This document shows, piece by piece, positions 37,208 to 38,057 of a stretch of 64,000 bases of DNA (positions are counted from its first letter, which is position 1; every line of letters begins with the position of its first letter). The stretch is from a bacterium (lineage in GTDB: Bacteria > Patescibacteriota > Minisyncoccia > Phycocordibacterales > UBA918). Both the position numbers and the translations under genes were made by a program. The stretch spans positions 26,790-90,789 of the forward strand of contig JAYSUD010000012.1 in assembly GCA_043719295.1 (NCBI GenBank), given 5' to 3'. Below the pieces are notes generated by a model. That model was not told the DNA's origin. It worked only from the letters and a program-made list of their open reading frames with translations, and did not search any database.

Positions 37208-37639
37208 TTAGAAACTATTAATTTCTTTAGTAATTCGAGTATTTGTGACATAAGTTGCTTCAAAATCATCAAATTCATGATGCACAATGTATGCAGTAAT
37301 AATGAAGTCATCAAAAAATTTTAATTCAACTTTCTCCCCAATTGCAGGATTATTTTTTTGAATCGTCCGAGCTAAATGTTGGATAAAAGGTTCCGATGTC
37401 CTATATGTAATGATTTGGGATATGAAATCAAAACCTTCAGCAAATTCACGCTTGAGCTCATCAATGATGAGCACCAAATCTTCTTCAGACTTGCCGGACT
37501 CAACCCAATCACCTGAAATCAACAAATCCCAGCTATTTTCGGCGTCATGTCGCTCAATCAAACCCATGAACAACAAAGAATCTTTTTTCTTTAAAAGATT
37601 CTTTGCTATGTTTTTTAATTTAGAAATATTTTCGTTCAT
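37208..37639 (-). CDS. Hypothetical acidic protein, downstream partner of the HEPN gene (2-nt intergenic gap)
   Basis: 143 aa, no motif recognised. It shares an operon with the HEPN-domain gene. Confidence 0.45.
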   Translation of the reverse strand: MNENISKLKNIAKNLLKKKDSLLFMGLIERHDAENSWDLLISGDWVESGKSEEDLVLIIDELKREFAEGFDFISQIITYRTSEPFIQHLARTIQKNNPAIGEKVELKFFDDFIITAYIVHHEFDDFEATYVTNTRITKEINSF

Positions 37640-37640
37640 A

Positions 37641-38057
37641 TTATTTTTTGATTAACCAGTTGCAAATATCCCTAGTTTTATCGATTGCTTCTAAAGCTTC
37701 TGCTTCCACCGAAGATGTACCTAATTCTCTATAGCGCCAACCTGTCTTCCATTTTTTGACAATACTCCACTTAGCTTCTAAGACGGAATTTTCACGTATT
37801 TCTTTCCCGAGACCGCTTAATTTTAATAGAACGTCCAAATCGTGAGTCTTAAATGAGCTATAGTTATTAAGGTCTTTATCTCCAGGAGAGGGATACTTTG
37901 GCCAATTTGAAATTTTTATAATATGTCTTTTCAACATCAGTTCAACAGCATAACCTGAAAGGTATATAGCACCTTCAAACTTGCCATTTTGTTGTAATAC
38001 TTTAGCTTCCTCAAACCTAGACTTAGCTAAGTCTACTAAACTTTGTGCATCAAGCAT
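37641..38057 (-). CDS. HEPN-domain protein
   Basis: SLVDLAKSRFEEAKVLQQNGKFEGAIYLSGYAVELMLKRHIIK...KTHDLDVLLKL matches the HEPN helical pattern (A.EkaLKa...., ...H.L..L) and includes an R-x-H-containing segment. Confidence 0.55.
   Translation of the reverse strand: MLDAQSLVDLAKSRFEEAKVLQQNGKFEGAIYLSGYAVELMLKRHIIKISNWPKYPSPGDKDLNNYSSFKTHDLDVLLKLSGLGKEIRENSVLEAKWSIVKKWKTGWRYRELGTSSVEAEALEAIDKTRDICNWLIKK

Follow-up and report, generated by a model that had tools for sequence, protein, structure and literature searches.

A HEPN-domain protein and an unannotated, probably MNT-derived partner form a widespread gene pair: a candidate toxin–antitoxin-type module

Two small, abutting genes in a 64,000-nucleotide stretch of patescibacterial DNA (the window) encode a HEPN-domain protein and an acidic protein from a family that carries no annotation, and homologues of the two recur side by side across many phyla. 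We put at roughly 55% the probability that the pair is a self-contained toxin–antitoxin (TA)-like module which descended from HEPN/MNT systems with its gene order reversed, and in which a pseudo-MNT neutralises the HEPN protein by binding it and not by AMPylation. To our knowledge, the mechanism of HEPN/MNT systems is understood only for the DUF86/RX4HXY branch, and an alternative HEPN active site that was proposed in 2013 is still unexamined. HEPN/MNT is also the most abundant TA module in prokaryotes, according to a prediction cited by Yao et al. (2020; PMC7641770).

Both open reading frames of the original prediction were found exactly where it had placed them. The HEPN gene (38057..37641, minus strand) encodes 138 aa with a pI of 9.1 and belongs to the HEPN-T/PF05168 clade; the partner gene (37639..37208, minus strand) encodes 143 aa with a pI of 4.9. 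Since both genes are on the minus strand, the HEPN gene (the predicted toxin) is the upstream gene of the pair and the 143-aa gene (the predicted antitoxin or neutraliser) the downstream one. They meet in a minus-strand TAA-T-ATG junction (37637..37643), in which a single T at 37640 separates the HEPN stop codon (37643..37641) from the partner start codon (37639..37637), implying that the two are translationally coupled. The spacer had been given as 2 nt and is 1 nt by sequence.

A second point of the layout also had to be corrected. A hairpin with a U-run (E2, 38171..38216, minus strand; inverted repeat I2) had been described as following the pair. It lies between nrdB (38420-39427, minus strand; Pfam Ribonuc_red_sm), which it closely follows, and the HEPN start codon, and therefore precedes the pair on the coding strand. 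RNA folding gave a stability of -27.5 kcal/mol (z = -5.2) that was matched by none of 200 shuffles, and since no Rfam family was found within 33000-43000, E2 is not a known RNA family. It has the appearance of an ordinary, possibly bidirectional intrinsic terminator. The simplest reading of E2 is an intrinsic terminator that ends nrdB and forms the upstream boundary of the HEPN operon, outside the module itself. The AT-rich intergenic region between this terminator and the HEPN start codon (38058..38170, minus strand) would, from its position, contain the pair's own promoter. A consensus scan of this spacer found no sigma-70-like site. When the region upstream of the HEPN gene was searched for operator-like palindromes, only the arms of the nrdB terminator came up.

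On the other side of the pair, the partner stop codon is followed after 26 nt (37182-37207) by a short-chain dehydrogenase (SDR) gene on the same strand (36498-37181). There is no terminator-like site in this gap, so the pair may be co-transcribed with the SDR gene in this genome; the arrangement is not conserved at other loci. The remaining neighbours in the window, nrdA and an M3 peptidase gene, complete housekeeping surroundings. No mobile-element marks were found around the pair in the window, and at 0.34 its G+C content is just a little lower than in the neighbouring genes. An AT-rich inverted repeat of 13 bp (CAAAGAATCTTTT...AAAAGATTCTTTG) lies towards the 5' end of the partner gene, at 37574-37605. 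It was picked up as a terminator-like element of the plus strand and is probably a chance feature of AT-rich coding sequence.

The upstream gene encodes a genuine HEPN domain. The protein scores 32.8 bits against Pfam PF05168, above the gathering score of 22, and the original HEPN assignment is thereby borne out at the HMM level; PF05168 is also precomputed in nine of ten HEPN homologues. A profile built from ten homologues matched no PDB sequence at E <= 1, and fold comparison was therefore used instead. It revealed an all-helical HEPN fold that is superimposable on solved HEPN domains. The phage family phrog_5737 matches the protein over its full length (E 2.7e-16), and the PADLOC model PDC-M28A matches it weakly (E 1.8e-4; 6.9e-9 to 3.9e-7 for its relatives).

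Residues G29, Y32, G35, Y36, E39, L42, K43, P56, H72, W97, W103, R108 and Y109 are invariant in 80 HEPN homologues. They include E39-x3-K43, an Ex3[KR] motif that is present in 80/80 sequences and corresponds to the described second conserved acidic motif of HEPN (PMC3710099). The window protein lacks the canonical Rx4-6H motif, as do all 80 homologues at the R108 site; the spacing of this motif does occur elsewhere in the sequence of 27 of them, never at the conserved R108. RX4HXY was found in none of the 80, and the only Pfam match of the window protein is PF05168 (type VII toxins belong to PF01934 or PF08780). What the family retains is the AF0298-type alternative, in which R108 is kept and the conserved H72 of a THDL motif lies N-terminal of it. 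Members of the AF0298-type HEPN-T clade keep the motif arginine, have lost the motif histidine and possess a second conserved histidine N-terminal of the motif, an arrangement that was proposed as an alternative RNase site (Anantharaman et al., 2013; PMC3710099). In view of the missing Rx4-6H motif, we infer by analogy with this clade that any RNase activity of the window protein would proceed through the AF0298-type site.

The partner belongs to a real protein family. When 1.84 billion representatives were searched exhaustively with phmmer, 88 clusters at 50% identity came out with E <= 1e-3, and 37 with E <= 1e-10. In public sources the relatives are recorded as 'hypothetical protein' with no Pfam domain. 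Searches of Pfam, NCBIfam, PADLOC and PHROGs gave only sub-threshold matches for the window protein itself, 71 family members gave neither a Pfam match (with no PF01909/NTP_transf_2 signal) nor a PADLOC match, and the family profile matched no PDB sequence. A Flavodoxin_3 hit (E 0.024) was rejected, being below the cut-off and in disagreement with the fold hits of the structural model. The protein is acidic (26 D+E versus 17 K+R). Across 79 sequences W37 is conserved at 100% and D38 at 97%, the latter being the only near-invariant acidic residue of the family, and R30, K7, W45 and S74 are each conserved at 91% or more. A G[SG]...DxD motif is absent from the window partner; among the 79 sequences GSX10DXD occurs once and the looser G[SG]x8-12[DE]x[DE] twice. 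The original description of an acidic 143-aa protein without the MNT GS..D.D motif is correct, and the protein is a non-canonical HEPN partner, as had been proposed. The idea that the partner is the toxin, by analogy with the MenT or AbiEii nucleotidyltransferase toxins, was rejected because the catalytic residues are missing.

No DNA-binding domain that could serve autoregulation was found in the window partner. Some homologues have C-terminal additions: a DUF2188 domain (82.9 bits) in L029 (3390-3977), and an extension of ∼ 70 aa in L026 (3393-4031), L068 (1498-2463) and P0087 that looks winged-helix-like by eye, without Pfam support. This extension could be a DNA-binding add-on for autoregulation.

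The AlphaFold (AF2) model of the partner (pLDDT 90.2, pTM 0.82) starts with a long helix (residues 2-19), followed by two strands (24-29 and 37-42), a helix (52-65), a strand (73-79), a further helix (84-96) and two further strands (103-109 and 112-121). Minimal nucleotidyltransferases have the same order of elements; a loop of the partner replaces the short helix that follows their Gly-Ser turn. When the model was compared with the PDB using Foldseek, MNT antitoxin chains of the A. flos-aquae HEPN/MNT complex took all of the first five places (20-25% identity; E 0.009-0.04; probability 0.66-0.93), with low TM-scores of 0.30-0.38. By eye, the partner motif LLFMGLIERHDAENSWDLLIS resembles a degraded form of the MNT signature hhLFGSxARGxxxxxSDhDLhV. 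An hhalign comparison of the partner profile with four PDB MNT sequences was not significant (probability 0.3%). Its register is that of the alignment by eye and pairs strand 1 with the FGS strand and W37-D38-L with the second Asp of DxD; it was not counted as evidence of homology. Bridging sequences with an MNT motif or a Pfam match were absent among the weakest and the longest partner relatives. By structure alone the odds that the partner is a degenerate MNT are roughly even; the adjoining HEPN gene raises them somewhat, and we regard this origin as probable. The loss of catalytic equipment is firm at the level of sequence: of the three catalytic carboxylates only D38 is left, and the Gly-Ser loop is gone.

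The association of the two genes is evident from their distribution. Loci were retrieved by HEPN alignment alone, from one genome per GTDB species, and all their open reading frames were then searched with the partner-family HMM, which makes this an unbiased co-occurrence test for the partner. In 83 of the 85 fetched HEPN loci the next gene downstream, on the same strand, encodes a partner homologue; the two exceptions are a contig end (L055) and one locus with no partner (L065). This adjacency is far beyond chance, and the partner homologues co-occur with HEPN genes elsewhere, the gene-neighbourhood check that had been suggested for the pair. In the reverse direction, starting from partner proteins, an overlapping HEPN gene was found upstream in both testable cases; one of these HEPN proteins has no Pfam match and was recognized by hhalign (probability 99.5%). 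Among the 84 scored pairs (the 83 fetched loci plus the window), 60 have a 4-nt ATGA overlap, five a spacing of -1 and four a spacing of +1.

The surroundings of the pair vary. At 52 of the 84 loci no flanking homologue is common to any other locus; neighbours at other loci include gyrA, pyrH/frr and aconitase, and no metabolic neighbour is conserved. The pair is found in at least 80 species of the GTDB representative set. Eighty loci are distributed over Acidobacteriota, Planctomycetota, Patescibacteria, Desulfobacterota, Gammaproteobacteria, Chloroflexota, Bacteroidota and two archaea, and the closest relatives of the window HEPN protein are from uncultured bacteria, including Saccharibacteria. 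The partner evolves faster, with a mean pairwise identity of 36% versus 53% for HEPN. The pairwise distances of the two proteins are correlated (r = 0.77), which shows that the genes travel together.

Single genomes can hold several copies. The metagenome-assembled genome (MAG) of Ca. Parabeggiatoa communis WS_Bin1 carries four (L027, L036, L045 and L064), and that of Thiotrichaceae GMC7, likewise a giant sulfur bacterium, has L042 and L065. There are also decayed copies. In L035 (1557-1952) the HEPN gene is split into two open reading frames and the partner is intact, in L051 (3088-3617) both genes are truncated, and in L065 (2971-3360) the HEPN gene is followed by an unrelated 372-aa gene and the partner is absent.

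Conserved adjacency, gene overlaps, unrelated flanks, patchy spread and multi-copy MAGs are standard hallmarks of a mobile TA-type cassette, and they support the view that the pair behaves as an autonomous two-gene module of TA or defence type. The proposal of a candidate TA or defence pair, part of the original prediction, gains from all of these features and from the combination of a basic HEPN protein with an acidic, faster-evolving partner. The missing canonical Rx4-6H motif counts against it, as does the fact that no Class II (PF05168) HEPN/MNT pair has been validated as a TA system (PMC7641770), and the TA-like reading is further weakened by the lack of a DNA-binding domain in the partner and by the housekeeping neighbourhood in the window, which is free of mobile-element marks.

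The mechanism that we favour can be outlined as follows. The basic HEPN-T (PF05168) protein encoded upstream would be an RNA-binding or RNA-cleaving toxin, its putative site being of the AF0298 type and made up of the invariant H72, R108-Y109 and E39x3K43, without canonical Rx4-6H. The coupled acidic partner encoded downstream is predicted to follow the MNT plan (a long N-terminal helix, then strand-strand-helix-strand-helix-strand). Lacking the Gly-Ser loop and two of the three carboxylates, it would no longer be able to AMPylate the HEPN protein and would instead act like a type II antitoxin, neutralising it through stoichiometric binding. HEPN protein would be set free when the partner, which evolves faster and is presumably more labile, runs low or is displaced, as might happen under stress or during phage infection. 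A more specific version of this proposal is possible, which we hold only tentatively. The partner would be a pseudo-enzyme, an MNT antitoxin that no longer transfers nucleotides. In its lineage, control of a HEPN toxin with a non-canonical H/R site would have passed from the enzymatic mode (type VII) to the stoichiometric one (type II), and the remnant nucleotide pocket (W37-D38 and R30) might now serve to sense a ligand and release the toxin.

Related HEPN proteins are encoded next to small open reading frames in a phage and on a plasmid. In Klebsiella phage Kp4864-1 (OK490416.1; L086) a HEPN gene at 2495-2917 overlaps an open reading frame of 134 aa at 2896-3300, and on the Acinetobacter johnsonii plasmid pAJ4131 (NZ_CP045104.1; L087) a HEPN gene at 2477-2893 overlaps one of the same length at 2872-3276. 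The two HEPN proteins are 31-37% identical to the window protein, and the plasmid pair adjoins BrnT/BrnA. Both 134-aa proteins belong to a different sequence family, with the motif AAMWFFY..E...WKYILV; hhalign gave no significant alignment with the window partner, to which no homology is detectable. These pairs may be an analogous or a very distant version of the same module. The partner of the window had no match in 50,697 phage records or in 72,556 plasmid records.

The partner might still be an active, non-canonical nucleotidyltransferase or other modifying enzyme whose covalent action on the HEPN protein would resemble that in type VII HepT/MntA, with Y109 as one conceivable target and with D38 and R30 acting together with residues from HEPN or a dimer partner. 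We consider this quite unlikely. GSX10DXD is missing in 78 of the 79 partners, a single acidic residue is conserved, none of the 71 members searched has a Pfam NTP_transf_2 signal, and the strand that bears the third carboxylate in MNTs has the conserved S74 (placed by eye from the order of elements, not by alignment). In MntA itself, even so conservative a mutation as DXD to EXE abolished HepT modification and reduced toxin neutralisation (PMC7641770). These points stand against a modelled fold that resembles MNT antitoxins, a conserved D38 that falls on the second Asp of DxD in the non-significant hhalign alignment, and an invariant Y109 beside the conserved R108; Class II PF05168 HEPNs have a conserved Tyr that is potentially adenylylatable (Yao et al., 2020; PMC7641770). 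An unlikely reading, too, is that of a domesticated, non-toxic complex in which an RNA- or nucleotide-binding HEPN protein and a structural pseudo-MNT have a regulatory or housekeeping role, comparable to the fused MNT-HEPN enzymes that use HEPN as a substrate-binding domain. Non-catalytic HEPNs and the exaptation of MNT-HEPN pairs are on record (Anantharaman et al., 2013; PMC3710099), the canonical RNase motif is missing here, the pair is present in small-genome Patescibacteria, and in the window it lies immediately upstream of the SDR gene with no terminator between. Such a role is hard to reconcile with a patchy spread over many phyla, unrelated flanks without a conserved metabolic neighbour, several copies per MAG and decayed copies (L035, L051 and L065), and the strict invariance of H72, R108 and E39x3K43 is what would be expected of a catalytic site.

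A third possibility overlaps with our favoured explanation and differs from it mainly in biological role. The pair could be an anti-phage abortive-infection or defence module and not an addiction-type TA system, the partner being a sensor or inhibitor that is displaced by a phage product to free the HEPN RNase. We regard this as doubtful, with some evidence in its favour. Numerous HEPN proteins serve as Abi or defence effectors (PMC3710099), the window HEPN protein matches the phage family phrog_5737 as well as, weakly, the candidate defence protein PDC-M28A of PADLOC, and related HEPN genes with 134-aa companions are carried by the Klebsiella phage and, beside BrnT/BrnA, by the Acinetobacter plasmid. 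Neither the window partner nor any of the 71 partner members matches a PADLOC model. The partner is also unmatched in the phage and plasmid records, and the flanks in the window and at the sampled loci are mostly housekeeping genes and not defence islands. Stoichiometric neutralisation in a TA-like module is our preferred reading.

The pair defines a coherent, widespread sub-branch, and its conserved HEPN-partner pairing needs an explanation even if the proposed mechanism is wrong. If the mechanism is right, a TA system can go over to another mode of neutralisation on the same protein scaffold, the pair offers a compact test case (∼ 140 + 140 aa) for the alternative HEPN active site, and annotation pipelines have a new protein family to name. 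Should the pseudo-enzyme and type-switch version prove true as well, it would be the first documented evolutionary switch of TA type within one fold pair and the first functional handle on the PF05168 (Class II) HEPN branch.

Among systems that combine a toxin with a small neutralising protein, RnlA/RnlB and LsoA/LsoB follow a similar logic, a HEPN RNase toxin with a small non-MNT protein antitoxin, and no homology is claimed. Both are anti-phage type II TA systems in which RnlB and LsoB neutralise their HEPN toxins by binding. RnlA and LsoA differ in their size, with several domains each, and in the canonical active site of their HEPN; the sequence of the window partner is not related to RnlB or LsoB. 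In MafB2-CT/MafI2 of Neisseria meningitidis, too, an acidic protein (MafI2) neutralises an RNase by binding it (PMC9970974). The MafB2-CT toxin is, however, a secreted polymorphic toxin of RNase A fold and not a HEPN protein, and MafI2 is 7% identical to the window partner. Since its authors found MafI2 closest to the CzrB cytoplasmic domain (PMC9970974), its likeness to the window partner probably reflects a generic sandwich fold and not homology. With type II TA systems in general the pair has in common small co-directional genes that abut or overlap and are kept as a unit, a patchy phyletic spread and a variable context; it differs from them in that the window partner has no DNA-binding antitoxin domain.

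The nearest relatives are the HEPN/MNT systems themselves. Class I (type VII HepT/MntA) pairs a DUF86/PF01934 toxin carrying RX4HXY with an MNT that carries GSX10DXD and tri-AMPylates a tyrosine of the toxin (Yao et al., 2020; PMC7641770). The window pair has neither motif and has the reverse gene order, its HEPN protein belongs to PF05168 and its partner matches no Pfam family; with both type VII motifs absent and the order reversed, neutralisation by AMPylation is unlikely. Class II combines PF05168 with PF01909; its HEPN proteins, with TT1696, ST0689 and AF0298 as structural examples, lack RX4H, its MNTs keep GSX10DXD, and it has never been validated as a TA system (Yao et al., 2020; PMC7641770). 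The window pair resembles Class II in its PF05168 HEPN protein and in the small partner that adjoins it on the same strand. It departs from Class II in that the partner has neither a PF01909 match nor GSX10DXD, and in that the HEPN gene comes first, whereas the MNT is the upstream gene in the modules tested by Yao et al. (PMC7641770). What is new, as judged from the sequences compared here, is a widespread sub-branch of HEPN/MNT-type pairs with an unannotated partner that lacks the transferase motif.
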